DNA of 55,843 nt, the filler included, from Sphacelaria rigidula (lineage: Eukaryota): the NCBI GenBank assembly GCA_964200075.2. It is 3 parts of 3 records of this genome, joined end to end, with 100 filler letters (N's around TTAATTAATTAA, not from the genome) between each part and the next. Parts side by side here need not be neighbours in the genome. Positions count along the whole stretch, not along the records: positions 37,301 to 55,843 come from CAXNAA020000840.1; 2 more parts are not named here. The stretch is one strand, 5' to 3'. The notes below the pieces were generated by a model, which worked only from the letters and a program-made list of their open reading frames with translations, was not told the DNA's origin and ran no database searches. Made by a program: the position numbers and the translations under genes. This document shows, in pieces, positions 2,080 to 48,100 of this stretch (the first letter of the stretch is position 1; each line of letters starts with the position of its first letter).

Positions 2080-3400
2080 GTCGTCGGTTGTAACGTGGTA
2101 GGGCGGGGACTTGGTCGAGTAGCTGTTGAGAGCATACTGAGTGAGTCCGCAGGCAGGTACTTGGGCATGTCGCTTGTATCATGCGGGTTCGTGCAGGGTT
2201 TGCATCTGTGCACGGAGACGCGGGGCTTGGTGTTCTTGCCCTGGAAGTCGCGAGGCAAGTCGAGATAGAGCAGTTTGTCACCGACGGGTTTTTTATCCGT
2301 TGATGATGACGATGGTCCGACTGTCAGGATCTTGAATGGTCCTGTCCAATTGAGGGACAATTTTTTCTTCAAAATTGTTTCGTTGGCTGCTTCACTGGTG
2401 CCTTGGCGGATGGTCGACAAGTGTTGTAGATCCAAACCCAGTCACCAACTTTCCAGTTAGGGCGTTTGTGCATGACATTGTAGGAAGCAGTATTAGATCT
2501 CTCTAAGCGCGAGGCATTGGTAACGTGTTGTTCGCGCACGAGGGTGAACGCTTTGCGTTGTCGTGCATGCGTTAGCTCGTTGTAGGATAAATGATCCTGA
2601 TCCAATTCTTGGTGTCCGTCGAACGTGTGGCGCTCAAACACGGTGATAGGCAGCCGAGGGTAACGCCCAAGATGGAATTCGTTCGGAGAAAGGCTGGTGG
2701 CGGCATTAACCGAGGTGTTGTAGGACAACATGATGTGCGAGAGATTTAGGTCTCAGTCATTTTGGCGGTCATTGACAACCATAGAGAGCATCTTCTGGGC
2801 CGTGGTGCGATTAACTCTTTCGGTACCACCGTTACCGTTCGGGTGGTAGGCGCTCGTGGCAATTTTGCGTATGCCCAGGAGCTTGTAAAAAGCTCATCAG
2901 AGAGGTCTAAACAAAAGTGCTGACCATTGTCTGAAAGTAGTCGCTTTGGGCAACCGTAGTGCTTAATGTAATCATGGACCAGTATGTCAGCCGTTCCGGC
3001 GGCAGTGAAAGCTGCGGCGGTTACCGCGTACATGGACGCGTGGCGGCTAAAGCGGTCAGTGAAGAGTAAGATGTAGGTGTTGCCGCGACCTGTGATAGGT
3101 AGGGGGCCGAAGTAGTCAAAGGACACAAGGTGGCCGGGCTCGTCGGGGAGTCCCATAGAGATCACGGGCCAGCGTACTGTCTGTCGTGAAGTTTTTCGGG
3201 CTTGGCATTTAAAGCATCGCCGAATCCAGAAGCGGGTGGAAATTTCCATACCAACCCACCAGTAAAAGCGTTCCAAGAGCGCGAGGGTGCGGGTGACGCC
3301 AAGGTCGCATGACAAGTCTGTGTGACAGCCTTTCATGACCTAGGGGCGCATTAATAATGGCACATACATGCGCGTTGGTTCGTCATTGAGTAGTCGTGCG
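2076..3400 (-). pseudogene. Integrase (zinc-binding region, DDE core, GPF motif), frameshifted
   Basis: CHTDLSCDLGVTRTL...FYWW...CFKCQ; LVSFDYFGPLP; LLSDNG; LSYNTSVNAATSLSP; LNWTGPFKI. Confidence 0.93.
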
Positions 3401-4191
3401 GTGCGTCCCGTAGTTGGGGCGGCAATTGCGCTTGTCAAAGGCGTGGGCCGACGTACGAGTAGTTGCACGCCTCCATCCGTAGTGAAAAGGGTGCCTTTAC
3501 GCACGAGCTCGTATACGTCAGAGATAACTGGTGGTGGCTGTGTTCCAACCGGGGCCAGAAGTGTGGACGGAAAAGGGACTAGACAGTCAAGTTGTAAGTA
3601 CCGGGTGGCTGCGCAACATAGCGGTTCTGCGTTTTGTTCACGAGCCCAATCGTGGTGAGAATAGCTGGCGAGAAACTCGCGTAGTTGACATTCCGCTGGC
3701 GAGCCGACCAAACATGGCAGGGCAGGCGGCGGGGGAACAGGCGACGGGGCAGAAATGCCGACGTCAATTTTTGTTCCGGGAGCTGGAGACGAGTCGTCAG
3801 ATCCGTGCTCGGGGGCAGGAGATGTTTGCGGCGCCATTGTAGGCGGCGGGGTTGTATCAGTGCGCAGCGAAGATTGCTCGCGGCGCGTGGCGCACGGTGC
3901 AGAAGTTTTTGCGGAGCTTCGCGGGTTGGTCCCTGGAGCTTGTGCTGGGTGGCTCATATGGGTTACAGGTGTTGTTGGTGGCGGCGGGGCACTCAGAGTA
4001 GTGCGGGCGACAGACCGGGAGCGCGTGTTGTCGGAGATAAGATGGATGACTGGAAGTGTCTCCGCAAAGAGTTGCGCGCGAGTGCCGAAAGTGCGAAAAT
4101 CAACAAAATCGGAGGTAGTGGGCTCTAACACACCCAAGACGGCGTCATATGGTAGAGGGCAAGATCCTCCCATATGCATACCGGTTTCCGG

Positions 4192-4700
4192 TCACTGGAG
4201 GTCGAGGGCGTAAACAGGCGTTGAAAAACGTCTGATCGCGTAAATTCCGGGTTCATCGGGTTCCGTAAAACGGCAAGCCGGGCTGAAATCTGCGGCCGTA
4301 GGCGGCAGAGGTAAGTGGGAAAGAAGATCCGCGTTCCCGTTGGATTTGCTTGGACGGTGCTTACTGGCATACTGGTATGCTGTTAGAAACTCCAACCATC
4401 GTTGTACACGAGGGTTTTGTTCACCAACCTTGGCGAGTTGTTTAAGTGCTCCGTGATCCGTATAGATCTCGAAGGGCACGTGAAACAGATATTGTCGAAG
4501 GCGCTTAATGACTCAAGTGATTTCTCCGCATTCCAGTTCTAGCGGGCTCCAATTGGCCTCGTTGGGCAGGGTAGTGCGGCTGATGTAAAGGATGGGTCGG
4601 ACAGAGCCATCAACCTGAGGTTGATTCACACCTCCTCCAAAACCATTTGTGCTGGCGTCAGTATGGAGTTGGAAAAGGCGGGAGCCATCTTGTACTGCCT
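4192..4700 (-). pseudogene. RNase H of pol
   Basis: FQLHTDASTNGFGG, NWSPLELEC, FEIYTDHGAL, RVQRWLEFL, SNGNADLLS. Confidence 0.92.
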
Positions 4701-5690
4701 CCCAATCAGGAAAGCAAAGTATGGGCTTTTCGGCAAGCGTCTTGAGTAATTCGCGGGTGATATTCTCCATTTCTGTGGTGAAAGAAAACACGGCTCCTTT
4801 CTTGAGTGGCTCAGTAAGGGGGCGAATCCGTTTCGATAAATTCGGCAAAAAATTGCTGTAGTAGGATAGCCCACCCAACAATGAGCGAAGTTGAGAAATG
4901 TAAGTAGGCATCGGTAAATCAGTCATCGCCTTGACCTTGTTTGTATCCGGATGCAGGCCTGCTGGCGAAATGGGATGCCCCAAGAAATCCAAGTCAGTCG
5001 CGCCAAGGCGAGCTTTGGATGGAGACAGTTTCAAATCGTGCGTTCGTAGGCGAGAGAGAAATTCTCGTAGAGTGCGTATATGTGCGATAGGTGAGGCATC
5101 GAAAGCGATAGCGTCATCCAAGTACATGATGATGTGCTCGAGGCCCTCGGTGACGCGTTGCATTAAGCGTTGAAAGCACCCCGAGGCAGTGGCGGCGCCT
5201 TGTGGCATGCAAAGCCACTCATGGAGTCCGGACGAGGTGCAAAAAGCCGTCAGTGAGACTGTGTCAGGGTGTATAGCATTCTGAAAAAATCCAGAAGCGA
5301 GTTCGAAGGTGCTGAATATTTTGCCTTCGCCTAAGGAGTCGAAGACTTCATTAATGCGGGGAATTGGAAGTTTACCGACGACAGTGACGCGGTTCAACCG
5401 TTGATAATTCACGGTGATGCGTATGTTTCCATCCTTTTTGGGGACGACCACAAGTGGCGAGGCCCAAGGAAAGGAGGAATGTTGTATTAGTCCCGCTCCC
5501 AAATACGCGTCCAAGATGGCGTTAACTTTCTTGTTCAGGATTGGGTTGGTACGGTATGGCCGAGAAGAAATCGGCGAGACACCGGGTTGGAGGGTAACCT
5601 CAAAGGGCAGTGTTTTGCAATGCCCAAGGTCCGTCTTGGATCGGGAAAATCGGTCTTGGTACTGTAGCAGGACATCACTGAGTTCTTAGA
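4700..5690 (-). pseudogene. Reverse transcriptase of pol
   Basis: SFPWASPLVVVPKKDGNIRITVNYQRLN, MPQGA, YLDD (5113-5124), FLGHPI. Confidence 0.96.
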
Positions 5691-18550: not shown

Positions 18551-18650
18551 NNNNNNNNNNNNNNNNNNNNNNNNNNNNNNNNNNNNNNNNNNNNTTAATT
18601 AATTAANNNNNNNNNNNNNNNNNNNNNNNNNNNNNNNNNNNNNNNNNNNN
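18551..18650. other. Assembly gap with artificial TTAATTAATTAA linker
   Basis: 44 N + TTAATTAATTAA + 44 N. An identical construct is at 37201-37300. Confidence 0.95.
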
Positions 18651-29512: not shown

Positions 29513-30784
29513 TTTTTTTTTGTAACAGACATTTTTTGTGAATAAATCGTCCCTAATTTATGCACAAAATATAAAATAATCTCATGGTCGACACCTTTTA
29601 TATTCTGCCCTCGCTATTCTCCATACCAAAATTTGAAGCTCAACTTTTAAAACTGAGCTGCTAAATCCAGATTTGGTACCTACCCTCGTAATATCTTCTG
29701 CTTGATGTAACTATTTTGTACCCGTATCTCTCGACAGATATGATTTAGGTCGAGGTGAGGGTATCGATCGTTTCCCCGTGCCCCAAAAATCAACGCCATC
29801 CACTGAATATTCTCGGGGTTTTTTGAAGACTTCAGTATCGAAATATCGTCGTATGCCAGAGGACATACTCGATACGGTTTTCCATCAACGACAAAGATTT
29901 TGAAGGGCAGGTACGACTCCTAGCACTGTACCCTGGTTGGAGTACCTCAAGTACGTTTTTCAAAATACCCTGCAATCGAGTATACTCTACTCGACCTGCC
30001 CTTGAAGCTTTTCATCAGGCTGTCGAGGAGATGAGTATCTGCACTTCGATTGGACGATTCACAACATGTGCGGATCACGGCCCAAGTCGTCTGCAATAAT
30101 GAAATATGCCTGTGACGGATAATTTGAATCCGTTTTCAGGCTGGCCCAGCCCGTGTTGCACCTGTTGGGTTCGAAATGGTTTCTTCTCAAAAGGCAAGAC
30201 GCCCGTTTACGTGAACACGTGGACGTTGAGCACCTGTCCAGAATGAGTTCTGAAGAACCCCTGACCGTTTTGTAAACCCCAAGCCAAATGCGTTGCTTCG
30301 CTGAGCCGTTTCCGTGAGGTATGCTTTCACGCGTTTCGTTGCAAGTGGTGGACGGTGGTGGTCACTGCGGTCCCCCTGCGATATGTGCAAACAACGTACC
30401 AGATCCTGGAAGATATATTTTCAGTAGTAGCAATAGCTGTTGTACACTGTAATTTTTTTTTGTCTATTGCAAATATTGATCACGTGTTGTCCATGGTGTG
30501 CAACGTACATGATACCAAGGGTGTGTTGGGTAGGGTATATCCTACACTTGGGTATTTTAAATGACCGTACTTGAAGTACCCAAAACTCGGGTTGATGATT
30601 GAGAGCGTACACAATACCAAGATATTGGGTAGAGTATTAAGATCGTACCTGATCCTACCCAACATTTGCGTGGAGGTTGGAGATCGGACCATCGCAATAC
30701 AAAATTCGAGATGGTGAATACCCGTGTATTTACACTACCTAACGTCTGTGACCACGGGTTCGCGAGATCGGACTAATGTGCGGA

Positions 30785-31158
30785 AATAATAATAATAATA
30801 ATAATACGCCTTGCATACTACTGTACTATTCTCTTCCAATATGCACCACCCGATACGCCTTTTTTTTTCCCCCATCACACTTTGCACCTCTCGCCTTCCT
30901 CTGGATGAGTCCGTGGTCTCAAGGGATAAACCCATCTCTCCCCCCGTACGTGCCTTTCATGTTGGTCTCGCGGATTGGGTCAGCACTCCCGCACCGCGTC
31001 AACTCACGTCACACGAACCCAGTCGACTACTTTGTTTACTCACGTTCTCACCCTTTCCACGATGGAACTCGGACATCACGAAGAAAAACCCAACGCATCG
31101 GGAATCGAACCCCCGTTCTCCTCACCCTAATGGCGACAGTCGGACCATTACACCTTAC
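30785..31158 (-). mobile_element. tRNA-derived SINE family B
   Basis: Minus-strand A box GGTGTAATGGT (31144-31154), B box GGTTCGATTCC (31101-31111) and an (ATT)n tail. A body fragment recurs at about 55600-55670. Confidence 0.7.
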
Positions 31159-32577
31159 AATATGCTAGCGCAGCCTTGCACTTTCTCGAGCATTGTTAAT
31201 TTTCCAAGGATGGCAAATAATGCCAAATGCTCTTACTTGTTACTGTTGTCTCCAGTGTTGCTGGTGGTAGTGCTGCTGCTGCTGCTGCGGTACCGTATCA
31301 TACATCCAAATAAATTTGTCAGCGGCTGAAGATGACGGTACAAAACAATCGGCGTGCCATCGCTCTCCACTGCACACCGTCTACTGCAAGCTGTTTCTAG
31401 ACCAATTCATTGATTGCCGCACATGATCCAGCTGTGGTCATGAATAGATGTGCCCAAGATACACGAATATTTGCTTTTTCTTACACAACAGGACTACAAA
31501 GTGTAACTACCTTGACAGCCCAAACGGGGTCACGGCGGGGTGCAAAGGCTACACAGTAAAAAAGGCCTCATTTGCATGTGTTCATCCATGGTTGAGTGGT
31601 CGTTACCGAAATGGTCATATACGGGTACACCGCGAAGTATATTAGTAATCCTTTACTGCTGGGTATCCTGTAGGGGAACATGGTGACTAAATTGACCAAT
31701 AAGTACATCACAACAGCCACTCCCTTCGGTTTATGCTTCCATCCTGGCTTGGAATATTCCAGTGGAAAGTTCACAAGAAAGCATGATTGATTTTTGCCTG
31801 GTGACGCACGGCACCGCCGCTGAGTGAAGATAAAAAAATGAATCTGTCAGGATTCGAACTCGTGACCTCCATCACTAGAGTCTCCTGTATCAGGGCGCTC
31901 ACGATGGCTCAAAAGTCGAGGAAACTGACAACCGTAGTGCGCGCGCAACTCCGAACAACCAAAAACGATCGACCTCGGGCTTGTCTTCGGGAACACGTGT
32001 GTGAAATTGTGTCTTCTAATTTTCACTCGATAGTGCGCTCCAACTGTCGGCGGTGTAGCCTTGGTCCTGACAAGTACCTCATCCAACTTTGTCACACGTC
32101 AAACACCCCATGAGCTACCTACAATAACTGATCAAAGAGGACTCTCGGCCCCCATCCGCAACATGAAAACCCGGATGGGGGAAATACCGGAGGAACGGCG
32201 CAGTCTGTCGACTGAACATCCATGACGGAGCTGTCAATCGTTCGTGGTCGATAGACGCAGAGACAACGAAGGAGTACAAAACAAGAAGAAAAAACGAAAA
32301 CATACACTCGTATAAAAGAAGAGACAAGAGAAAATAGCCACATCTGAGAAGGAGAAAAAAGAAGCGGCAATGAACAATCGACCATGATGTCATGGGCAGA
32401 CAAAACCCAAGGGGGATGACAAGAAACGAAGTAGTAAGAATCATGAAAAGAGGAATCTCAAAGTCGAGGTCCCCAGTATATTCGACATCGACCCTTCTGG
32501 GTCTGGGATGGACTACCGGGGTTGAGGGCCCCCACTGTGAATCGGCATCATTTTAACCTGAAAACGACTGAACTTAA

Positions 32578-32839
32578 CCCTTGGACCGCGAGGTTAGTCT
32601 TCTGTTGAATCGGCATCAATTTCGAGTGAAAAAAAGTATGCATGATCCAGAAAGACTGATCTCGCGGTCTAAGGGTTAACCCTTTTGGGACCGGACTCCC
32701 GGGAGCATGTGGGTTGCACGAAGGGGGCCTTTCGTGAATCGGCATCATTTTCAGTCGTTTCCCCCTAAAAGTGATACCGATTAACGGAAACGCCCCTGCG
32801 TGCAAACCACATATTTCTGGGAGTCCGGTCCCAAAAGGG
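32578..32839. mobile_element. Two abutting piggyBac-type MITEs (32578-32675 and 32680-32839) sharing a TTAA
   Basis: TTAA at 32574, 32676 and 32840. TIRs are CCCTT(G/A)GACCGCGAG (14/15) and a perfect 21-bp CCCTTTTGGGACCGGACTCCC. Confidence 0.9.
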
Positions 32840-34427
32840 TTAATGCCGATTCATACGTGGCCCTCACGTACAAACCAGGGTTTCACTCCTGCTTCGTGGG
32901 AGTCCGGTCCCAAAAGGATTGTATTTACTGTGAAACTTTACCCGGAACCTCCACTTCGAGATACCTCCAATAACGTTCATATGATGAGCGTTACGGGTTT
33001 ATAATGTACAAAGGGACAACACTTTGGCACAGACATTTTGTCAATGTTTTCGTGATGCTCCATGCTGGGCCAGCCAAGAATCTCGCATCCCTTCTGCACA
33101 CGGTGACCCTTCGAAAATACGGAATTGGCTTGATGGAAGCTCATCTCTGCTGAACTCTGCAGAACTGCAGGCCAACCCGCTGGCCGCACGCTTCACCGCT
33201 GTTCGAGTGGCGGTCACGCGACGACGATGTCAATTGCATACCCTGAACAATAGAATACACGGTCGAAAAACGTACTGTTGCAATAGACAATATATTCCAT
33301 ACTGTACGCAGTACGTTTTTCGACCGTGTATTCTTTTGTCCACGGTATGATCATTTGAGTACAGTGTGCTTTCTACGTCATCTCTTCTTCGAATCGTGTT
33401 CTTCCTCTTCTTTTTTCTCGTGCAGAAGTAAATCGTTCTTTACTCGCGGTCGCAAATCCACTGCTATACAAAAGATTAGGGTTGGATACTGGCGCAGCCG
33501 GCCAGGATCCACTGGCTGCGACAGTAGCCAGTATACCGGATCCCATCAGTACACTTGTGGCGCGGCGCAGCCGCGACCAGCGCCCCCCTCCCGGCTGGTG
33601 AGGGGCCCCCGGCCCCCGCCGGGAGGCGTTTTTTCACGTTACTTAGCGTCACTACGATAGAGCCTAGAAACTGAGAGGTTTTTGACCAACCTAAGAGGCA
33701 CTATTTCGGGAGACAACGTCTGGTACAACGCCCAAATAAATTGTTTCCAACTCGAGGAGAATGTGAAAATAGAAAATACTAAATGTGCCACAAATGTTGC
33801 AATGCTCATCAACTCCAGCGTAGTGATGAGGCTTACACGTAATTTGTTGTAATTGAAGTGTATCGCGTGTCGTCAGTCTCAACAAGCACAGAGTACTTCG
33901 GACTTACGCATAAAAAATGGAAAGAGTACGTCTATAGTAGCCCTTGACGGCACAAGGCGTCAGCGCCCTTGATTACTAATCATGAGGCAGCCTCACACAA
34001 AAAAACAAAACGAAAGACACAGCAGCCCTAAACGTGTATCAACACCGCATTTTCTGACGCAGCGGGTGCATCTGCTGACGCAGCAGGCCCCGCGGTACCA
34101 CCACCGAAGGGGTCTGCTGTTGGCGGACTGCCAAACGTGGAAAATCTTTGAAACGTTGTAATGGTCTCCTGTTGTGTGCGTGTGCTTCGAGTGGTGTGTG
34201 TTTTCTCATTTGAGGCGGCGTGGTGGCGTAATTTAGATGGGTTTCCGCTGTTTGTTTAGGCGTATTGTGGGACGTACCTGAGTTGTGTGTATCCTGGCGG
34301 TACTTGCTTGCTGCCCGTTTGCCAGGTCTCAGGAACTGGCCAGTTCCTAAAAGCTAGCTGTGCGTACTGGTTCAGTATCCAACTTTACAAAAGATCAAAT
34401 CCGCTGCCCAGTATGACGAAGTCGGAC

Positions 34428-34714
34428 GCCCCAGTGGCTCAGTTGGTAGCCTCGAAACAATTTGACGGATGGATCGTGGGTTCGAATCTCGGAGCGAGCT
34501 GGGTCTTTTTCTCACACAAATGCCCTACACTGTAGTCGAGAGCGACTACGTCGTAGGCACACAAAATTCGACTCGATGGTCGACGAGGTAAGGGAACTGC
34601 TAACCCCCTCTCGCGATAAAAAAAACGGTGTTGACCTTCCTCCTGTGCGACCCCGGCTGGTGCGCCCACATAAACCGAAAGGTGCAGACCGGCGTCCAAA
34701 ATAGACGGGAGTGC

Positions 34715-34752
<38 letters not shown>
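34428..34752 (+). mobile_element. tRNA-derived SINE family A, near full length
   Basis: A box TGGCTCAGTTGG (34435), B box GGTTCGAATCT (34479), repeated body and (CA)n tail. There may be a degenerate TSD. Confidence 0.85.
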
Positions 34753-34754
<2 letters not shown>

Positions 34755-35972
34755 ATGAGAAATGTTGAACCCAAATTTCTCACAGGCCCTCGCGACGTAC
34801 AGGGAGCTCATGTTTTTTTTCGTTGAGGTCCTCGTACTGGAGTTTGTTTTTTCCCTCCAGATTTTTGAACTGAGCTTGGCCGTACCAATTCTTTTTGTTG
34901 GACAAGTTGTGTCACGGCCCGTGTGTTTACGTTATTAATCTTATGTAAAAGCTTCAGTTTCCCAGACCTAGAGATAAGCCCTGAAAGCCGAATAGAGAAA
35001 GAATTGTCGCCCCTACCTGCTCACCCTGCAAGTCCTACTAATTTTCGGGGTACATCAGTACCCGCGATCGCCATTGCGCTGTCACACTAGAAATGGAATG
35101 CACGGCCAAATGTTGGGAGTTTTGGGGCGGAAACTCCACAAGGATATTCTTCGCGCAATCAACAGAAATTGCCAGAGACGTTTTGTCGTCAATTTGCGGC
35201 GTTTTCTTTTTTTTCAAAGCTCCCAAATCGCTTCATCTCTCTGTTGTTTTCCCTCTCGTCACTTTTCGCGTAATAATTTATTGCGAATCTCGCCCTGAAA
35301 TGAAGCCGTTCAAAACTTTTCAACCCCAAAAAATGACCCTTGCTCGGCCCAGCATCCAGTCATTATCCAACAAGGGACAGCTGATACAGACAAGGTGTGA
35401 ATTGGGTTTATCGTGGATTGGTTCTCGAGGCGTTCGTGACCGTGTTTTGCACAATCGACCTGCAAATAGAGCCAAATTATGTGACGACATTTTTTTCACA
35501 TATGCCCACGTGACGTACTCGTAAAAGGCATCCGTGGCCGTTACTTGCTCCCGATACAACGGCTGATATTGACGAGCGCGTCATTGGAGCTTTTCACATA
35601 CACACGGATCCTTCGTGCGTGTTTGTTTTGTTTTAGATTCGTTTTTCTTAATCTGATGAGTAAGTACATGGCTGACTTTCTTTGTCGATGATGAATTTTA
35701 GGTGGATACAAGTTTCAGGGGGCCCACTTGAGCCTGGCACGACAGACTGAAGGCGGTAGATGCCGAACTCGTCGACCCGTTAATTTTAATGATGATTGTG
35801 GCTGTTCACCTCATAATTACGGGAAATTATCTTCAAGGCGAGAGAAGTATATATATATATATTGTGAGAACATCCGAACCAGTGCGTCACACGCCCCACA
35901 GATTAGGCGCCTTTATAATCGAGACAACAGGAAATGAAGAATGAGATGCATTTATTTATTTTTCAACATGGT

Positions 35973-36852
35973 TGTGTGTGTCGCCACCCCCATCAATTCC
36001 GGACGCTGGTCCACACTTTTTCGATATATGTGGACGAATCAGCCGGGATCACACGGGGAAGGAAGGTCAACACATGAGTTTGTTTGGTTGTTGTTTGAAG
36101 GACTCCACCTTACTTCTGCGGTGCTTGCTTTACTGTTTGATCGGGAGAAGAGTTCAGCGATTCTTTTCCCTCGCGGCCGTGAAGTCTACCTTTGTGTGCC
36201 AATTCGACGGTTTTCCCGGTGAGTCGGTTGGTAACCTCGAAACCTTCTGACGATCGGGTCGTGGGTTCGAGTCTTGGTGACATCACACGATCTGAGATTT
36301 TGTCACATCATGCGATAAAAAATGAAGGCAAGCACCGCAGAAGGGAGTTGAGGTACGAAAAACAAATAAAAAAAAGCTCCAGTGTTGACCTTCCTCCTGT
36401 GTGACCCCGACTGGTGCGCCCACATATACCGAAAGGTGTAGACCGGTGTCCAGAATAGATGGGACAACACACGAACACACACATACACACATGCCCAGCA
36501 GTGGAGAACGACCATGTCTTTGGTACACAAAATTCGACTTCACCGTCGACGAGGGGAAGGGGGGGCTGAATCCTTCTCGCGATAGAAATAAGACGAGCAC
36601 CGCACGCGGTAGGAAGGTGGAGTACTACAGGTGATGAAACAAAAGAAAAAAATGTGTTGGCCTTCCTCCTGTGTGAACCCGGCTGATGCGTCCACATAAA
36701 GGCGTAGACTGGCATCCACAACAAATGATATGGCGCCCACAACTCACCGTTTAGAATCATGTGAGAAAAAATGTAGATCGTGCGACTTCACCGAGATTCG
36801 AACTCGCATTCCGGCAGTCAGATGGTGTGGAGGACACCAACTGAGCCCCGGG
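35973..36852. mobile_element. Cluster of four SINE-A pieces (-, +, +, -)
   Basis: 35973-36205 minus body; 36215-36490 plus copy with A/B boxes and CA tail; 36490-36725 plus body; 36755-36852 minus tRNA head. Confidence 0.8.
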
Positions 36853-37200
36853 GACAATTGGGCGAACGACAATATATTTGGGGTCTTTCGAATGAGCTTT
36901 GACTCTCTGTGCTCAACGTCTTTTGGAAGCATGCTAAAAAAATCCATCACTTCGGAACCTTACAAGGATTGTACAAATAATGATTCGTCTGTAAATTACT
37001 TGGTTTTAGTATCATGAGTCGACTCGTGACGAATCAATCCCTAGGCTTTTTTTCAGCGTTGCAACCCAGGTACACGCACCCCAGACACGTGACATGATGG
37101 CGCAAAAGCTACGTGGATACCCCTTGGACCAGCGATCAACTTTTTTTTCCCTTTCGGGCAATCAGACCGAAGAAATCGTGAATTTGGTGATTTTGAGTCG

Positions 37201-37300
37201 NNNNNNNNNNNNNNNNNNNNNNNNNNNNNNNNNNNNNNNNNNNNTTAATTAATTAANNNNNNNNNNNNNNNNNNNNNNNNNNNNNNNNNNNNNNNNNNNN
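37201..37300. other. Assembly gap with artificial TTAATTAATTAA linker
   Basis: 44 N + TTAATTAATTAA + 44 N. Confidence 0.95.
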
Positions 37301-38002
37301 TACAGTGGCAGTCTGTACACTTGTCTAGGTTGTGGTGGCTTGTTATTACCGCGCCGTTGCCACTCGACGCCAACCCAAGAGTCTAGAGGTGAGGGGGGTG
37401 GGGGGGGGGGGGCGTACTCATTTGTTGCTCGCCTGAGTTGTTTGACCGTTGACCACGCACCCCTTTCGAGACGGAACACCGTGAAGTTTGACCGGGAGGT
37501 TTGAAGTGGGGCGTAAGCAACCAGATATTTGTAAGCAGAGTCAATTTCTTAAGCGGAGTCAAAGATAATCCATCATTCATAACAAAACATGCGTTCGAAT
37601 GGCTACGTGATGTGCTTTGCCGCGATAGTCCAAACGACATTCTGTGCAGGTCCTACCACGCTCTATCATGCATCTCGGCCGTGCCCGACTGGCATTGAGC
37701 TTCGTAGAAATGCCAGTTCCATACTTTTATGCCCACTCTTTTGTGGGTGGCGCAAGGAATGGTAGGGGATGTTTTTGAAGGGGTGATGAAGCTGTTGCAA
37801 TTTTCATATATACAATGTAGCTGGTTGCAGACTGAAATGACTGATATTTTGTGAAGGTAGACCTGCGACACATCCTCGTTTCTATCATCGACTGTCAGAG
37901 GGGAAGAGGGGCAATGCCGGTGGCACGTGACACAAATTTCACAGATATGTGTATCTTCGTTCAGGAAGGATTTTTTCATCGTCGAATATGTTCAAGTCGA
38001 AA

Positions 38003-38215
38003 TTGTGTTGTCATCCCATCTATTCTAGACGCCAGTCTACACCTTACGGTGTATGTGGGCGCACTAGCCGGGATCACACAGAAGGAGGGCCAACACAGGA
38101 GTTGTGTTTTTAGTTCTCCCCCTTCCTTCTGCGGTGCTTGCCTTTATTTTCTCATCGCGAGAGAGGTTCAGCATTCCCTTTCGCTTGTCGATCGTTGAGT
38201 CGAATTTTGTGTACT
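38003..38215 (-). mobile_element. SINE family A, 3' part, in the ARL13 intron
   Basis: gacgccagtctacaccttacggtgtatgtgggcgcactagccgggatcacacagaaggagg matches the family body. Confidence 0.8.
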
Positions 38216-38627
38216 CTTTCCGCTCACGAGAGAAGGAAATCCATAATGGATCGGTCGTCTCAGGGTTGGGCAGGGGGCGAGCATGTTCTCACCCCCTCTC
38301 CCTCCGTCCTTCCCGCAGTTGATGCGGTGGCAAATTGCACCGGAGCTCGGGTGTATTCCATATCGCACGACGGATGGGACTACGGTAAAACATTAGATGA
38401 GGAGCATCAACCATGCATCGACCCGCCCTTCGCTCATGCTGCTCCCCGAGATTCATACCAATTGCGACAATCCCGGTACGTTTGGGGACATCTTTTCCCG
38501 ATGTCGATGGGGTTCTGTAACGTAGGTAACATGAACCCTTACACACAAATCCCTCGCTACCACCAGAAACATCTGGTCGGATCCACAACCCAAAAGTTAA
38601 AAAAGTATTGACTATCTTTTTACTGAC

Positions 38628-38798
38628 CTTCCCGGAGAGGTGCTTGTGATTCATCGCAACCAAGAAATGTTCCTTGCTTTCCTCCCACCGCGCTCTGTCC
38701 GCCCCGTCAACCAAGTAGATCACACCGTGAGCGTCGTGGAAGTAGTTATTCCATATGCTCCGAATCTTTTTTCCTCCCCCGAGATCGTAGAACTTGAC
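38628..38798 (-). CDS. ARL13B: ARL13-type GTPase, exon 5 (G3/switch II)
   Basis: AG|VKFYDLGGGKKIRSIWNNYFHDAHGVIYLVDGADRARWEESKEHFLVAMNHKHLSGK|GTCAGT. DLGGG in place of DxGGQ is the ARL13 signature. Confidence 0.93.
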
Positions 38799-38912
38799 CT
38801 ACGGGAATGAGTGATGGGAGCGCATATGTGACAGCATGGACAAGGGGTGAATATATTATTGAATGGTTCGGGGAGTTAAGGGTGGGGCGGGCATTAGCTA
38901 CTGGTCTGCTTG

Positions 38913-38943
<31 letters not shown>

Positions 38944-39766
38944 ACCCCGCTCCCCCCCCCCCCCCCCTCCCTCCTCCCCCCCCCCTCCCCCTCCCTTCTC
39001 CCCTCACCNNNNNNNNNNAGAGGGTAAAAAAATATTATAAAGTTGGGGGGGTTGATGGGGGGGGGGGGGAGCAATCGAGTTATTGTTTGGTCCCCCCCCC
39101 CCCCCCCCCGCCCCCTTTTACCGTCCAGGAACACTTTTTTGTTCATTTTCTACTCCTCGCCTAGGTCGTTGCGCACTACCCGCCGTATCATAACTTTCCA
39201 AAAGTCTCGGGTTTGTGGCAATATGGGGGGTGCTAGATCATCATTCCCGTACACGAGCAGACAGCGTTTTGTCCCCCGCCATGGTTGAACGACTCGAGCG
39301 GTAGGGCAGGGAGTTGACGTCATCGAAGAAAAAGTGGAAAATAAACGCCTGAAAGCGATCAAGTTACCTGTTCTCCGACACATATGACATGTACGATCAT
39401 GGGGCATATTTGTTGCGGTGGTTTGGGGCCACCGGAGCAAGCACCGCAAATATGCCAACCGCTACCGGCTCGAAACTAAAAAAAACAACCAGTAAGACAG
39501 TAATCACAGGCCACCCGGCAGGTTTGACTGCGCCAGATCTCAATTGTAAAGTGAACGATCACATTGTTGAAAAAAACAGCTTTGCTGACTTGACAGTGGT
39601 TCCATGGGTACATCGGCCTGGCTGTCCGCCAATACTCGTAGCACGACCCTGTCTATCCCTACAGCACGTGCGGAAGTAACGTGCAATCGATGGGCTCAAG
39701 CTGTAGCCAGCACATTACAACGGCCCACCCACAAGCGTAACAACAGAACCAGATGTAGTGACTGCA

Positions 39767-39870
39767 GCACAACAACAACAACAACAACAACAACAGCAAC
39801 AGCAACAACAACCACCGCCGCCTCCACCACCACCACCACCACCACCGCCGCCGCCGCCGCCACCACAGCT
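39767..39870. repeat. Compound intronic trinucleotide microsatellite (CAA)n/(CAC)n/(CGC)n
   Basis: Read directly from the sequence. Confidence 0.9.
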
Positions 39871-39926
39871 ACAGTCACAGCCATATTAATCAAAATGGTT
39901 GGGTCCCTGACTTGCCTCGACCTCAC

Positions 39927-40157
39927 CTTGAGCTGATCGCTGAGCATCATCGTGACCGGCTTGAACCCCACGCTCGGTCGTACTCGCGGGTCATGGTCTC
40001 CTTGAAGGGTGCCGAGTAGAGTCGTCTTTCCAGCCCCGTCTATGCCGAGCAGTAACACCACCGCGAGGCGCGGGTTCTTGTTGCTAGACGTCGCCGACGT
40101 TCCCGCAGGCATCGATGCTTCGATACGTGATGGAGGCAGGTTGGCCTTCGATGCCAC
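39927..40157 (-). CDS. ARL13B: ARL13-type GTPase, exon 4 (P-loop and switch I)
   Basis: CAG|VASKAN...VVLLLGIDGAGKTTLLGTLQGDHDPRVRPSVGFKPVTMMLSDQLK|GTGAGG. Phase 0/0, in frame with exon 5. Confidence 0.92.
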
Positions 40158-40957
40158 CTGCGGAAGCCGAAATGCGACGCCATCGTCGGAGGCCCAAGCA
40201 TGTAAAAGAGATTCCGGGGGGGCGAGGGGGGGGGGGTACCTTGATGTTGTGTGTTCAAAGGTGTGTGCTCTATGTCATCTTGATGCCGTGTACTATGTTT
40301 TGGTAAGCCGCGCCAACCACGGTAACGCGAGACGCAAGTGATCGCACAATCTTTGGAAGGGGGGCGATGAAGCCGAGTGCGTCGAGGTGCGCTCTGTGTA
40401 CATAATTTTGCCTTGATTTGTGAAGACATGGGCTCTCAATCGTGTTTGCGCGAAGTATGGTGTATGCTCATCGAAATGTTTTCATCCTGAAGGGTTTTGG
40501 TGTAACCCAAGGCATACTCCTGCATTTCCTTGTACCACACACTGCGTCTTGTCCCTCGATTATCTAGCGAACACTTGCATCATACCAGAACCCGGAACGG
40601 GACCGGCCATTAACGCGCCAGATGTGCAGCATATACAGATAATATGATGATCCTACCTAGTCCATTCGGTCCCTCGCTGACCGCTGCTTCCATCCTCCCC
40701 CCCCTCTCTCTCTGTATCTGGCTCTCTACCCTTCCGTCTGCTTAGCTATATATCTGCTTGTGTTTCCATATGCGTGTCTGTCTACCTGTGGGCTCTGTCT
40801 CTGTCTCTTTCCGTCTGTCTGTCTACCTACTTGTCTGTATATGTCCACCCTCTCGCTCTTTCTCTATATATCTCCAATGGGTAATATGTGAAACATGCAC
40901 AAGTTCAGCCGACACCAAGATGAACGAAGGGGCAGTCGAATGACCGTAGATTGATAC

Positions 40958-41123
40958 CTCAACGTCCCACGGTTTGTTCCTGCTCTCTCTGACCCCTTCT
41001 GCAACAACTCGGTCTCCTGTATCGGTGGACAGGTCAGGCCTCCGCGGGGGACTTGGCGACCTTGCACGCGAGGGAATTGCGCGCGAGCAAAGAAGTAGCG
41101 GCTTCGCCTGTTGAAAACAGCTG
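40958..41123 (-). CDS. ARL13B: Predicted exon 3 of the ARL13 gene (low-complexity linker)
   Basis: ttgttccgtttcgcgcAG acceptor and GAG|GTATC donor. Phase 2/0, reading ...SRARSPSPPRRPDLSTD...KPWDVE. Confidence 0.55.
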
Positions 41124-41270
41124 CTGCGCGAAACGGAACAATCTTTGGGATCGGTATCTCTTAGTGAGGTCGATCATAGCAAAATATTAAGTCCATCTAG
41201 TCAAGCTTCCGTTTCCTTCGTGCGTCTTGTTTCGCTGTAAACTACCGGTGAAAAATATACACTATCTCAC

Positions 41271-41544
41271 CGACGCTCTGTGCGGTCCTCCTGTGGTGGG
41301 GAACTTTTCTGCACTGCGAGGTCCATGTCCTGAGCCTGCTGCAGGCGGTTTCGAGCGGTCGATGGCCGAGGTGTTGCCACTGGAGAAACTGGTTTAGCGT
41401 TGTCGGTAATGTTGCCACCATGATCGCTCCTGTACACATCGTTGTGTCGCTCACTTCCGAGAGGAGAACCTCCCGTTGATCGCAGTGGTGTTTTCGACTC
41501 ATTGAAGTTCTCGCTGACCTCGGGCGTTTGTGTTCTTACCGCTC
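41271..41544 (-). CDS. ARL13B: Predicted exon 2 of the ARL13 gene (low-complexity linker); alternative acceptor at 41379
   Basis: aaaaacgatAG acceptor and CG|GTGAGA donor. Phase 1/2, reading ...VATPRPSTARNRLQQAQ... Confidence 0.55.
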
Positions 41545-44322
41545 CTATCGTTTTTTTTTGTCACGCGAATTGTGAACGTCGTAGCGGTCGTCTTATCTAG
41601 ATTTTCTCGGATAGGGCGCGTACAGACAAGACTCGCATGCCTTCACCCTATCCGCGCATTCACCGTATGAAAAATTAACGGCACAAAAAGGCACACTTAT
41701 GTACTGTTTCGGATATAGCTACCATCTAAGTTGTAGGTGTAATCTGTTCGGCTTTACACGAATGTGTGGCCTTCATAGTCCTCTATAGATGTACCCGTAT
41801 CCAAGCATATGTCGTTGTAAAGAGATGAAGAAACAACGTTCACCTCATGCCTTATAAAACCAAAGCTGACGGAAGTTACACTAACGTGAGACTCTCTTTT
41901 GTGCTGCTGTGCTGACGGTGTCGTAGTGTATGCCGTACATACGCTTTGTGTGCCTATATGCACGTTTGACGTTTTTCCCGAAACCACATCGGATTTAATC
42001 GGAAGATATCAGGATTCTCGTGCTTCGGGTGTGGTTGATATCCTGATGAGGGAATCAAATTGCACCATTTTTTACTCCACTAGCTGCGTCATCGCGGGCT
42101 TCAAGTAGCGCGAACTCTATAATACTAAGAGCTATATCAAACCCACCTTTCAATTGGTCGCTCGTGTCAAGACATGTCGACTCAGCAATGGCGACGAGCG
42201 TGTCAACTGTGGATCTCAAATACTTCACACTTTACAAAAACGTACCTGTCTTACGTTTCGCTCGATATCAAATCGAGAGACGCGAGAAACTTCTCCGAGG
42301 ACGGCTTACGGTACAAAGACTTTAGCTCCGTGTGCGCGTTTTGTTCTTAAAAATAAGCTTCTTGTTTTCTCATGATATCTTTTTTCTTTTCAAGCCTCAT
42401 TTTGAGCCCTTCTAGCGCAATTTGGGTGCGCTTTATGCGCCTTATTCGCGTCCTTGTTGTGGCGTTGTGACAGTATCCTCTCACGAGGCGCGCCTTCTAG
42501 CATGAGGACAAGACGAGAAGGTGGGCATTCGGAGTTTCAATGATTAATTTTATTTTATAAAATGTGTGTGCGTGTGTGTTTTTGCGTCGCGCGGCAGAGG
42601 CTTCGAAGTCCGCAACTCAGTCGCCTCAGCCTCTTTCGGCTCTGCCATAGTAGCTACACTGTTGACTGCACCACCGCTGCTGTCACTCATTATCACTTCT
42701 CACTGCTGCGGTTGCACTACAGCTGTACACTGTACGCTGTACCAGTGTACAAGTCTCGATCACATTTTTGAAATCAATTTACTACCACGTCAAAAGAATA
42801 TAAAGTTGAACCTTTCTCTGATCAGACCCGCAACCAAATAGGAACTCGAAACACGACCATCAAAGTTTGAAGTATTGAAACCTGAAGCCTATCGGCCTGT
42901 CTTGTGACAAGTCACGTCACATGAAGCACTTGCGGAAAGCTGCTAGAGTGGCAGCAGGAGGCGCATGAAAAATCATCGAACTTCATGCGCGTTTCAGGCA
43001 CACTGAGCTCATTATAAACAAAACAAAAAACTTATTTACGCTGAAAAACAAAAAATTACCTAAGCTTTATGCGTGCATACGGGGGTCTGTCAGGAGAAGA
43101 TTTTCAGACACGTAGCCGCCGCCCCCCCTCCCGGAGGGCATTTTTGTTTTTAGTTCTCATGATGTTTTTTTTTGCCAAATGCTGTTGAAGAAGTCGATAA
43201 AAAAACAGTGACGAAACCGGAAAGTCTGATGGGCTTTGCGAGGTTCGTTTATTTGCTTCTGCGCCTTGCCCGCTATGTCCCGATGACCTCGGATGCCGGC
43301 CACGCTCACACACATATATGCACATAGGCGCACGGTAGCGACAGCCTGTAGCCAAAGTAGCAACATTATTTCACGCCTCACCAAACTTGCCTGGACTACT
43401 GGTAAGTACTCAAGGCACACGACACGGAACATGACCTAAAAATGTCATCATGGTAAGTGATGAGTTTTGGGGGGGCGAGCGTGTCCGTCATCTCAGCGGT
43501 CTCCATGCCAACGATCTCTGTACACGGCAGCTGACCGCATCCGCCAACGCCTCGCCAATAAACTAGGGGATAGCAGTCGGGGTGTCCCCCCCCCCTAACC
43601 CCCCCTTCTCCTCTCATTAAAACTCAATTTTTTATCTTGGGGCCTACGCGTCCCGAAATCTTTTTTCGACAGACCCCTGGCGCCTACGGAACGAAAACCT
43701 AACGGTGCATTGTACACGTAGGTGCCGAAGGTCGTTGCAGGCGATGCGCTGACGATGGTCAAGCCGCTTGCTCGTGCGCTCACAGATTTTTCACAGAAAT
43801 AGGCCCACCCGACTCGATTTAACCGTGTACTCTTGTATTATTCCCACTTTCTGTACGCGAGTTTCCCTCGCGATTGTTGTCATCCTCCTCACATTTCCAT
43901 GTGAGACCGTATAGGACACAATGTACACATGGAGGCCCCTGTGCTCGAAGGTCCTTAATTTCTACCGAAATCGGGTGAGCGGTCAAGATCCCGCACCCTG
44001 AACAATGACTTTTGTGCACAATATAAGCCCAACAGCATATATGCAGATCTGCACTGAGCTCTTACGATTCATCTCTACATTACAACCCTACGAGGTACGA
44101 TCACCAGACGTCTACAGCTGTTCAGTTCGTTCACTTGGATAGCTTAGTCAGTTTTCAGGATACCTGCTCTCACTTGCGGTTTTGGAGGGTTTTCGTCGAA
44201 AGTTGTTGTTCAGAAAATGGACGGAGTGTTGACAGTTTTCGATCACATTCGATTCTAGAACAAGATCCGAGGTCTCAAGGCGCGCAGGCTATAAAAAAAT
44301 CATTCATGTTGTCCATATTCAC

Positions 44323-45193
44323 CTCGGAGCTGCTCGATAAGGAAGGATTCCACATCTGTGGGCATGTGTCGCAAGGTGCGGTTGATGAGCTCGGTGACCA
44401 GGGGCCCAATCTCTCGTGCCATGAAGAGACGATCCCTACGCTGAGCGAGCCTCCCCACAGCATTGCCCACAGTACCACTGCCACTATCTTTGTCCTTACA
44501 CCCATTACCCGTATTCAGTTCACCCTTCCCGCTGCCGTTGCCACCATCGCTACTACAACGGCCACTTTCCACAGTGCCTACCGAGTATTTAGGACTAGGA
44601 ACCCCAATAGCTGCACGAGAATTGGACGCGTTGTTCTTATCTAACCGTGATGTATCATTCTGATAGGCTGTTGCGGAAGCAACACCGTTCTTGTTAGTGC
44701 TGCTGTCATCTTGTTTTTCTTTCCTTGATACAAAAAGCAGGTGGCGGAGCGCGGCATCGTGAACGTTCGTCGGGTGGTCGGACACGAGCGCCAAAATCAA
44801 AGCGCCCATCACGGGATCTACCTTCGCACAGAGGTAGGCATGGGTTTCTTCGACTCGTCGACGTTGCCTGGGAGAAACCCTGCGCCTAGCAGGTTTTACC
44901 TCTACACAACCTCCTCCCACTATCCCTGAGTTGACGGTGGTCCTTCCATAGCCGCCAGCCGCCGCCGTGAATGGCCGACCGCCCCCACAGCCCCCACCCC
45001 CGCCGTCATTGTGTTCGCTAACGGCGGTCGCAGCGTTGTGCATCCCATCTTGATTTGCACGCCACCGTGCGCGTCTTCGTCTCCCGCGCTCATCTCGGAG
45101 ATGTCTAACTTGTGCCAAGCTGCTACCCCCACCGAGACGTACCGATGGGGGTGCTGTAGAAGGCGGTGGCGGGTGTGCCAGTGTCGTTGCCAT
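44323..45193 (-). CDS. ARL13B: Predicted first coding exon with two Dpy-30/RIIa-like dimerization/docking motifs
   Basis: ccaATGG start after an in-frame stop. Motifs AYLCAKVDPVMGALILALVSDHPTNVHDAALRHL (44735-44854) and LFMAREIGPLVTELINRTLRHMPTDVESFLIEQL (44327-44434). G|GTGAAT donor, phase 1. Confidence 0.75.
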
Positions 45194-48100
45194 TGGTCGC
45201 GACAACCGCGGGCAGAATAGGGTGTGGTAATTTGGTTACAGGGAAGGCACGCTGTGGGGTAAAGTCTGAGAAAGGGCGTAGGAACTCTGCAGGATCCCCA
45301 CCTCATACGAATCTAGAGAATCATGTGTTTATATACCGCATGCATGCGATAAGTGAAGACAGAGTGAGTGGGATCTTTCCTCGTGGCAAGGATATCGCGG
45401 TCCGCGCGGATTTCGTACATATTCACGTGTTGTGCTCCAAACATGTGTTCTTCTCCTAGGTCATAGTTCATTTGATTTTTTTTTTCTCGTCTCCTTCGAC
45501 AGGAGTCGAGTCCAGACTTTTTGAAGGAGATTGCGGCGGAAACAGAGGGAAAGGGCTATCGGCACGGACACTTTAGGTTTGGGAATAGGGCACGTCTGAT
45601 TATCCTCTCTGCGATCTTGTGCATCTTCGTCTCTCTTACCTCTTTCCTACGGTGGAAAATATAGTTTCATCCGGACAACAACGGGCCAGAGCCCCAAGGG
45701 CGGAGCGGCACACCGTAGCAACCGGCGGCGCCCTCTGTAGAGGTGAGGCGCATGGCAATATTAGACTTTCGCGCAAAGGTTGTGCAGGTACCGCGTTCAC
45801 TAGGCGTGTTCTTCGTAGGTATGCTACTGGGTCGAAGCTATGTGACTTGTTTTGTTGTGAGTTGAGGGGATCGTCTGTGTGCGCGTGCGTGCTTTCGACC
45901 AGCTCCGCTTTTGTTCACCTCCGTCAAACGAACGCTTGTCATTAACCCCGGTCCGTCTTCGTCGTGTACCTGTTATTCAGCAGTCATTTGCAGTGAGATT
46001 ATGTACAGCAACAGCATAACAGCCAGTATGGACAGACAGTACAGACAATACAGTCCCGTGCGTTGAGAGCGAAAGCAAATACATGTGCCTATCTGTCCCT
46101 AGTATCTGAGTTCCCAACCATGAGCGCTGTAAAAAGGTGTGCGTGCATCTTGCACTCTGCGCTATCTTGTCAACGTGAGTTATACCACCCTCCCTCGATT
46201 GTCCTCATCGAAGAGCACAAGACAACGTCCTCATGGCAATATATACCTAGTTTTAGAACGGTTTGCAGTCGTGGTCACCCACATGTTTTTTGCTGCGGCA
46301 AGCGGGTACTATAGTGTTATCTCTACCGTCCTGTACTGCCCTACTCTTCACTGAGCAGGCACGTCCAAGTGATTATCTCCCTGTTAATTGAGTATGCCGC
46401 TCGTGAATCTCTTCAGATCGAAATCAACGGGTTTGACATGAAAGTTTCGTCCATCGTGCCGTAAGATATGCACGAGAGCATGGACTACTTCCGTTTACAT
46501 CATCGCGACGCATTGAGAAATCGAAAAAAATATGGACGTTCAACATACCGCCCCGAAAACCTACGTGCAACAGACAGTACAGTCAGTGAGACAGTACAGT
46601 ATCGTCTGTACTGACTGTACGGTATGCATTACACCATGTTGCCGACGCCCTCTCTGAAAAGCCAAGACGAATCGCTCTTTTACGTTGCTCAGTTCACCAC
46701 GAAACCATCAGCAACTTTGTGCTACCGTATCCAGAACGCAGAGTTAGAGTGCACCGTGTGCACGAATCACGTACTTGAGCTTTTCAGATCGCAGCGCACC
46801 AGTACACAGCGCAGACCGTTCAACACAATTCGTGCAAGGGCGTAGACAGCGGCAGGACGCGTTTTAGCTGTGTCGGCCCTGATTTCCAGGCCCGACTTTC
46901 GCACCAACTCCCAACCCTAGCTGCATCATACTGTATTGTACTGGACTGCAGTATTGCACCTCCCTCCTCCCCCCCTCCCCCCCTCCCCATCCACATTTGC
47001 GTATGGATACAGGAGGTCACGCAGTAGTCGTACCGGGCAAAAGGTGTGCGGTGCAATGCAATGCCGTCCAGTACATTGCAGGATAGTACTTGTAGTGGGA
47101 AGGGACTGGTTATCCTTTTTATTTTTCCTTGAAGGAAAAAGGAAAGCCGCACCGAACACTTACCCCTCGAACGGGTTCATGTGCCGATTACCCGGAGTAT
47201 TGGCTAGACCGCTGTGTGGCGGTCATATGGGGTAGGCGCCTCGAGCGTTCGGAAAGCTCTGCTGAAGGCAGTGTGGAAGTTGAACCCACTTCCAACCCCC
47301 CCCCCCTATCAACTTGGCGCAGTGCAGTCGCCGCCCTACTCTTATGAGCTTTGGCTATCCTCGTGCGTGTTTTGTCCGCAAATATCCGGGCAGCTTCCTG
47401 ACAGTCTGGTATCACAGGAGCGTGCGCTCTCTGTTCGTGCACAGGGGACAGGGTAACGATTTCACCTTGAGTTGAATTCTCGAATATATGTCCTGTGACC
47501 ACCGCTGGATCGCTGGAGGGCCAGTTGAAGTGCGACAATCAATCAATCAAATCAATCAATCATGTGTCTTGGTCCCTGCCAATGCACAGGGGTGCTAGTG
47601 TGCCTCGTTCTATCTTGCGTACAGCAGTTTGAGATCCGATGCCACCTGTGATAACGCAATAACATAGCGCAGCACAAGCAAGTGCCAGAGAGACGTGCAC
47701 CCCGCGGAGCCCACCCGCGATCGTTACGATAGTGATGCTGAGATTTTCGAGTTCAACAGATTTGAAAACTCAGGCAGTGTCTTATCAAATTGTTTTCGAC
47801 TCGAAAACGTACGCTGGAATCGAATTTGCTCTTACCTGGTACGTCCACGGCATCCATGTTCTCAACCATCTGAGGGAATAACGAGCGTGGGCGAATCAGA
47901 AACGAGGGAATTCGATTCGACAAGACACGGCCTCACTGACAGTTGAAAAAAAGTGAAGGTTGAGGCATAGTAGCATACTGTAGAGACAACGTTGGAGTCG
48001 GACGGGGTACGCATGGTGGCACAGGAGCCGAGAAAATGACCGTCCTCGGGGGGTGTTTTCTACCATAAATCAAGGGGGTGATGCCCAACGTTTCGGCCTG

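Follow-up and report, generated by a model that had tools for sequence, protein, structure and literature searches.

How might an ARL13-type GTPase be held in a flagellum when its N-terminus offers no evident site for a lipid? The question is raised by a minus-strand gene of Sphacelaria rigidula, located at positions 38628..45193 of a 55.8-kb stretch of DNA from assembly GCA_964200075.2, and this whole analysed stretch is called the window below. A preliminary description of the DNA had proposed that the gene fuses ARL13 to two tandem docking-and-dimerization (D/D) motifs. Overall, we consider it quite probable that the window holds the 5' two-thirds of a brown-alga-type ARL13 orthologue, whose D/D pair would serve as an axonemal docking module and whose missing 3' end most likely reflects a break in the assembly. 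The encoded protein begins with a conserved basic N-terminal helix, followed by two mutually homologous motifs of helix-turn-helix form, a linker with partial conservation, and the ARL13-type GTPase domain as far as its first half. The two-motif layout of ARL13 was already published in 2021, and the gene reported here is a rediscovery, namely another brown-alga copy.

The gene consists of five exons (Table 1). All five are preceded by AG and followed by GT, their phases are 1, 2, 0 and 0, and 571 codons run without a stop, as the preliminary description had reported; only the acceptor of exon 3 probably has to be corrected (see below). Upstream of the ATG at 45193 lies an in-frame stop, with no other in-frame ATG between the two, and the predicted N-terminus lines up with the N-termini of orthologues in the alignment. 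When 2783 six-frame pieces of the window were searched by hmmsearch with a profile of three brown-algal orthologues, the open reading frames (ORFs) of the five exons were matched in colinear order, with E-values of 1.1e-46, 8.3e-11, 6.1e-07, 1.9e-28 and 3.4e-27 from exon 1 to exon 5. The exon order is in accordance with tblastn using brown-algal orthologues, in which for example exon 4 shares 84% identity with relative P0007. The match over five exons is far above chance. In addition, Ala occupies position 2 and no Cys occurs before residue 68, so that no N-terminal myristoyl or palmitoyl site is evident, and the earlier statement that the protein has no lipidated N-terminal helix stands.

The GTPase part, as judged from sequence comparison, is of ARL13 type. 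Pfam detects Arf (PF00025) in exon 4 (E 1.3e-06, 28.4 bits) as well as in exon 5 (E 3.9e-14, 52.9 bits), against a cutoff of 22.3 bits. Among solved structures, the best matches of exon 5 are the ARL13B chains 4m9q_A and 5di3_B, with E 4.6e-11 and 5.2e-11, followed by ARL2 at 1.7e-08; for orthologue P0006 the match to ARL13B (E 2e-35) and that to ARL1 (3.5e-22) lie 13 orders of magnitude apart. Switch II reads DLGGGKK, without the catalytic Gln, and a switch II of this kind is described as a hallmark of ARL13 in the passages of Zhang et al. 2018 (PMC6140319) that concern it. EsiArl13 is likewise placed as Arl13 in the relevant part of Vargová et al. 2021 (PMC8358228).

Whether the N-terminal exon and the GTPase exons belong together can be seen from the relatives. 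An exhaustive representative search by phmmer with exon 1 gave 39 relatives at E <= 0.001; 26 of them score 1e-10 or better and 13 score 1e-30 or better. Pfam finds the Arf domain in 14 of the 38 relatives scanned, and most of those lacking it are N-terminal fragments which stop at or near an exon boundary. For example, the unspliced ORFs P0008, P0009 and P0010 all end a few codons past ...EQL(R/Q), at the same spot, which fits a conserved intron 1, and the ORFs P0004, P0016, P0021, P0027 and P0028 end right after WD(V/I)EV, which fits a conserved intron 3. P0008, from another data set, has 98% identity, and exon 1 is intact there too. A search for longer proteins with exon 1, in which 8000 candidates were scored, gave four at E <= 0.001, and three of the four have the N-terminal region followed by PF00025 (Scytosiphon promiscuus, Ectocarpus sp. 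and one EukProt entry). The other named relatives are Ectocarpus fasciculatus, Hapterophycus canaliculatus, Discosporangium mesarthrocarpum, Choristocarpus tenellus and the xanthophyte Tribonema minus. On the whole, the N-terminal region and Arf stand in one protein in gene models of six named brown-alga species and of Tribonema. Two distant relatives, P0041 (521 amino acids on a 1635-nt contig) and P0043 (470 amino acids on a 1527-nt contig), also carry both motifs together with Arf, and their contigs, barely exceeding the ORF, look like single messages. We therefore regard the D/D-like exon and the GTPase exons, on sequence grounds, as one gene, and the survey of orthologues upholds the fusion in the preliminary description, with both parts joined colinearly and in the same architecture in brown-algal and Tribonema proteins.

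The comparison with orthologues also bears on exon 3. The 21 residues encoded by 41061-41123 (SCFQQ...PSRA) are missing from all 15 aligned orthologues, and an alternative in-frame acceptor lies at 41060 (AG at 41062-41061), 63 nt from the acceptor at 41123. With the acceptor at 41060 the protein reads ...TERR|SPSPPRR continuously, as the orthologues do. The junction given earlier as 41271/41123 is thus probably 41271/41060, and we take 41060 as the more likely acceptor. With it, exons 1 to 5 comprise 550 codons, and the extension before the G domain is about 445 amino acids long; the long extension in the preliminary description is retained, with this length in place of its ~465 amino acids. 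Two acceptors around 41061-41123 could also reflect alternative splicing rather than simply a wrong call.

The two motifs of exon 1 are homologous to each other, since their profiles align with a probability of 95.8% by hhalign (E 7.5e-09, 36 columns). The tandem pair is retained among the relatives, motif 1 being found in 32 and motif 2 in all of 33 rows. A profile stacked from both motifs, searched against 177,635 solved sequences, gives nine matches at E <= 10: an RIIa-domain protein (the best, E 0.045), DPY-30 twice, RSP2, SPA17, the axonemal AK8, CATIP twice, and one unrelated protein. Five of the nine are named D/D proteins, and the stretches of AK8 and CATIP are counted as axonemal only. 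With the profile of the whole region, RIIa is matched at E 0.32 and RSP2 at E 9.1, while phmmer of exon 1 against solved structures yields chance matches only. Among 33 relatives, Pfam Dpy-30 is marginal in three (best E 1.2e-04, 22.1 bits against a cutoff of 22) and RIIa is weak in three (best E 0.0079).

A similar picture is given by the structure models. An AlphaFold run with 5 sequences was poor, with a predicted local distance difference test (pLDDT) of 50.4, and a run with 33 sequences was used instead, in which both motifs are helix-turn-helices with the values given in Table 1. The top two Foldseek rows are DPY-30 chains at E 7.5-8.5, and one of them superposes on motif 1 with a root-mean-square deviation (rmsd) of 1.4 Å over 37 columns at 30% identity (E 8.5). 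In the top 50 rows of the VIA structure search there are six named PKA/SPA17 D/D domains and four more radial-spoke or axonemal chains of 44-84 residues; all of these rows have Z 3.7-4.7, mostly with rmsd 1.2-3.0 Å, where a Z under 8 may mean only a common arrangement. The nearest named clusters of motif 1 in the protein atlas are RIIa (17%) and DUF5586, at a score of 0.76 that counts as a lead only, and the atlas gives no usable match for motif 2. The agreement of the sequence-profile list and the structure list on D/D proteins is hard to explain by chance. We infer that the two motifs are members of the RIIa/Dpy-30 D/D superfamily.

For the pairing of the motifs, prediction of a motif 1:motif 2 complex gives an ipSAE interface score of 0.40, compared with 0.02 for the best control, and the verdict 'weak support'. 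The mark is reached by 51 of 78 solved complexes and by 2 of 108 mismatched pairs; those at the mark with an ipSAE no higher than 0.60 comprise 5 of the same 78 complexes and all 4 passing mismatches of 180. At least 77% of the contacts agree between the runs, with a partner pLDDT of at least 67. The predicted template modelling score (pTM) of the model rises from 0.24 to 0.47 with the deeper alignment, and VIA alignments to compact bundles span both motifs, e.g. residues 113-287 with rmsd 2.9 Å over 65 residues. A long, disordered linker separates the motifs, and much of residues 170-240 has a pLDDT below 50. The modelling thus lends weak support to the intramolecular four-helix bundle suggested in the preliminary description. 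A basic N-terminal helix, missing from that description, is modelled at residues 25-52, with block pLDDT of 90 and 81 for residues 31-50. It is retained from brown algae to the most distant relatives, and the passages of Vargová et al. 2021 and Zhang et al. 2018 on these proteins contain no description of it.

Sequencing runs were placed on 37301-45600, namely X1, X6 and X7, whose RNA kind is guessed only, and the DNA-type X2. Three X1 contigs lie within the gene: one at 41335-41523 inside exon 2, one at 40548-40739 inside intron 3, and one at 41031-41154 which is unbroken across the 41123 acceptor, with 31 letters on the intron side. They look unspliced or genomic and are undecisive on splicing. 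The contigs of X2, which may be the assembly's own source sample, match the window across all five exons. Besides these, an X1 contig of 412 nt with depth 123 matches, with 1 letter different, only the 99 nt at 44735-44833, which are the motif 1 core, and could come from a paralogue sharing motif 1 or be chimeric. Contigs of X6 and X7 with depth of about 270-290 and lengths of 413-423 nt lie at 45525-45600 and past the upstream edge of this stretch, about 330 nt upstream of the ATG, and could belong to a neighbouring expressed gene or a repeat.

The gene in the window ends at ...HLSGK. In orthologues this point is followed by P(L/V)AxILNKED, the G5 region, a coiled coil and a conserved C-terminus, and their G domain, with ILNKED and the next helix, is aligned to CrArl13 up to residue 206. 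According to the part of PMC6140319 on this point, the coiled coil after the G domain is needed for the catalytic function of ARL13. The last ~90 residues of the brown-algal orthologues P0005, P0006 and P0007 include a conserved C-terminal block (...LVGYQKLALQMVGNMKSPISRKNRA...), which has no Pfam family at E <= 0.01 and is absent from the window. A scan of the minus strand for NKxD from 38700 down to 20000 gave a single match, at 29328, in unrelated context. The depth of X2 contigs is 51,000-404,000 in the bins 37301-37577 and 37855-38408, compared with about 25-30 in neighbouring bins, and this jump, about 220 nt past exon 5, marks high-copy repeats. Within intron 1 the X2 depth is 30,000-40,000 at 43118-43671 and 4,579 at 42287-42563. 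The missing 3' third most likely goes back to a gap in the assembly, or to a break laden with repeats, immediately past exon 5.

Several results weigh against an ARL13 orthologue with a D/D docking module. Of the 51 run joints, 15 were listed; these sit at repeats, and none of them is a spliced joint at one of the four junctions. The G4 motif (NKxD), the G5 region, the coiled coil and the C-terminus were found nowhere in the window by profile, tblastn or frame reading, so that the window copy could be truncated. Pfam gives no family in exon 1 (E <= 1) or in either motif alone (E <= 10), RIIa (PF02197) and Dpy-30 (PF05186) included, which leaves the earlier naming of the motifs with 0 families on the window's own sequence. 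Nor is any D/D match significant (best profile E 0.045, Foldseek E 7.5, VIA Z <= 4.7). What survives of the two D/D-like motifs is a tandem of mutually homologous helix-turn-helices, as in the published 'DD_R_PKA (2)', with matches that stay below threshold. An ipSAE of 0.40 falls in a band which is more often wrong than right unless the guess is likely beforehand, and the score may reflect a memory of solved D/D dimers. In addition, a flagellar location, an AKAP (A-kinase anchoring protein) partner and exchange activity are putative for the window gene.

These points leave room for other explanations of unequal weight. Two neighbouring genes, one with the D/D exon and one with the GTPase exons, might be suspected from the 2.8-kb length of intron 1 and from the listed run joints, among which no spliced contig of the organism is seen; however, single colinear proteins carry both parts, the frame is kept over all four junctions, and conservation extends to the linker exons 2 and 3 that lie between the N-terminal and GTPase parts, which makes two genes barely credible. 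A truncated gene or pseudogene, from which a rearrangement associated with repeats or transposons removed everything past exon 5, deserves more attention. It would account for the finding that neither the 38.6 kb downstream nor the rest of the window matches orthologue residues past ...GK, and for high-copy repeats, short repeated elements and a retroelement on the downstream side. On the other hand, in exons 1-5 the frame is open, the splice sites are canonical and conserved residues are retained, the nearly identical ORF P0008 has exon 1 intact in another data set, and two runs of 44 N only 1.3 kb downstream make missing or misjoined assembly at least as likely; we thus hold a true truncation unlikely.

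As for the motifs, they might be a lineage-specific helical hairpin that looks like D/D and has another role, such as self-regulation of the GTPase or binding of tubulin or membrane, with no AKAP-type docking. The silence of Pfam on the window's own sequence, the sub-threshold D/D matches and the poor atlas result for both motifs all agree with this, yet D/D proteins dominate the lists of two independent methods, relatives reach or come near the Pfam Dpy-30 cutoff, and a published HHpred analysis assigns the same domain, so that a mere look-alike seems improbable to us. A more serious possibility, though still well short of an even chance, is that the motifs pair in trans with a second chain like canonical D/D homodimers, two docking grooves then being present in an ARL13 dimer. 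The D/D matches among solved structures are all dimerization domains, the prediction for pairing within one chain was graded 'weak support' and may draw on remembered dimers, and the linker between the motifs is long and disordered. Retention of the tandem pair in every relative inspected rather fits an obligate pair, and the rise in pTM with the motif-spanning VIA alignments suggests that the two are packed together in the model, whose contacts are not directly readable. A further reading, which we regard as doubtful, takes the motifs as an internal pseudo-dimer, i.e. a monomeric AKAP-docking module, with the basic helix as a third functional element, an arrangement that would anchor the ARL3 exchange factor to the axoneme and regulate itself. 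The basic helix might then be a pseudo-ligand of the docking groove, or bind tubulin tails or membrane. Among all these, an ARL13 orthologue with an axonemal D/D pair and an end lost in the assembly remains the reading we prefer.

Table 1. Features of the ARL13-type gene and of the stretch behind it, with positions in the window
Feature	Positions	Strand	Description
Exon 1	44323..45193	-	290 codons + 1 nt; start codon, basic N-terminal helix, two D/D-like motifs, low-complexity linker between motifs
Basic N-terminal helix	45038..45130	-	residues ~22-52; consensus GxGLxGxRxLRxxR from 33 sequences
D/D-like motif 1	44720..44872	-	residues 108-158; pLDDT 94-98
D/D-like motif 2	44324..44461	-	residues 245-290; pLDDT 92-98
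Intron 1	41545..44322	-	2778 nt, GT..AG; high-copy repeats at ~43118-43671 and ~42287-42563
Exon 2	41271..41544	-	linker; conserved RPSTARxRLQQAQ block; profile E 8.3e-11, tblastn match
Exon 3, earlier form	40958..41123	-	ends in conserved NKPWDVEV; form favoured by homology 40958-41060
Exon 4	39927..40157	-	G domain begins; P-loop GIDGAGKT at 40023-40046
Exon 5	38628..38798	-	switch II DLGGG at 38772-38786; runs to ...HLSGK
Stretch past exon 5	37201..38627	-	no further ARL13 exon; high-copy repeats from ~38408 downward; two 44-N runs at 37201-37300

The surroundings of the gene are rich in repeats. The positions 18551-18650 show the same pattern as 37201-37300, with two 44-N runs 12 bases apart, and both may be masked or scaffolding gaps. 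A repeated element of about 180 nt, resembling a short interspersed nuclear element (SINE) or a miniature inverted-repeat transposable element (MITE), is present at 34534-34710, 36382-36591 and 36654-36736, with an inverted copy at 38147-38214. Inside the gene, intron 4 contains trinucleotide microsatellites, read on the minus strand as runs of GGT and GTT, together with long poly-G/poly-C tracts at 39759-39875 and 38906-39110; the tracts flank a 10-N gap, where reads appear cut. On the minus strand, 2749-5685 is a retrotransposon remnant with reverse transcriptase, RNase H, integrase zinc-binding and integrase core domains, beyond which long ORFs without Pfam match continue on the same strand to about 12.3 kb. 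Of the 124 six-frame ORFs with at least 100 amino acids, 60 were scanned with Pfam, which detects the retroelement only, and Rfam gives no family in the window. Among the relatives, the Tribonema minus protein P0031 (1468 amino acids) has an ARL13-type protein joined to enoyl-CoA hydratase domains, and is probably two merged genes.

If the preferred reading of an ARL13 with an axonemal D/D pair is followed further, the two motifs would probably pair into an X-type four-helix bundle, for which pairing within one chain is weakly favoured. The bundle might dock on an AKAP-like axonemal protein through an amphipathic helix of the latter, as speculated in print with RSP3 as an example. The docking would keep an ARL3 exchange factor in the flagella of motile spores and gametes with no need of a lipid anchor, much as trypanosome Arl13 is held by its single D/D domain. 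The AKAP-type flagellar anchor of the preliminary description is kept here as an inference and equals the speculation printed by Vargová et al. 2021. Stramenopiles, like trypanosomes, would then probably rely on protein docking instead of a lipid anchor to bring the activator of ARL3 to the flagellum, an idea in print since 2021. For annotation, the value of this locus lies in the likely exon-3 acceptor at 41060, the missing 3' end and the conserved basic N-terminal helix.

The closest known system is EsiArl13 of Ectocarpus siliculosus. Two tandem DD_R_PKA domains are described in oomycete and ochrophyte Arl13 in the pertinent section of Vargová et al. 2021, Genome Biol Evol (PMC8358228), where supplementary table 1 lists EsiArl13 (CBJ49234.1) as "DD_R_PKA (2)", the assignment being made by HHpred with alignments of the extensions, and where a ciliary or axonemal AKAP such as RSP3 is speculated to be the partner. 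In the papers that we searched, no functional study, partner or location of a stramenopile ARL13 was found. Like the gene reported here, EsiArl13 has the N-terminal helix, the two motifs, the linker blocks RPSTARSRLQQAQ, RSPSPPR and NKPWDVEV, and an ARL13 G domain, and its printed sequence shows the same motifs as relative P0006. The identity between exon 1 of the window and EsiArl13-type proteins is only ~40-55%, the window copy has a longer low-complexity linker between the motifs, and unlike EsiArl13 it is without the 3' third of the gene.

The Arl13 of Trypanosoma brucei resembles the window gene in having no Gln in switch II, no N-terminal palmitoylation site, and an N-terminal D/D region. 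It differs in having a single D/D domain and in that its function is shown experimentally, whereas the window gene is known from its sequence. As stated in the part of Zhang et al. 2018, J Cell Sci (PMC6140319) on localization, trypanosome Arl13 reaches its axoneme association through the D/D domain, and this domain is judged an independent acquisition in the corresponding part of PMC8358228. The Chlamydomonas and human ARL13B (5di3_B, 4m9q_A) are the best solved matches not only of exon 5 but also of the orthologue G domain with the next helix, and ARL13B shares the switch II DLGGG(K/x)IR with orthologue P0006; they differ in having no D/D extension. Animal ARL13B is described as palmitoylated and membrane-bound in the relevant passages of both papers (PMC6140319, PMC8358228). 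Finally, DPY-30, RSP2, SPA17 and radial-spoke RIIa chains share with the exon-1 motifs the helix-turn-helix pattern YLxxxVxPxxxxLxxxLxxxxPxDxxxFxxxxL, and axonemal D/D chains superpose on these motifs at rmsd 1.2-1.9 Å over 44-49 residues, both similarities being below significance. The axonemal D/D proteins have one D/D domain each, paired between chains.

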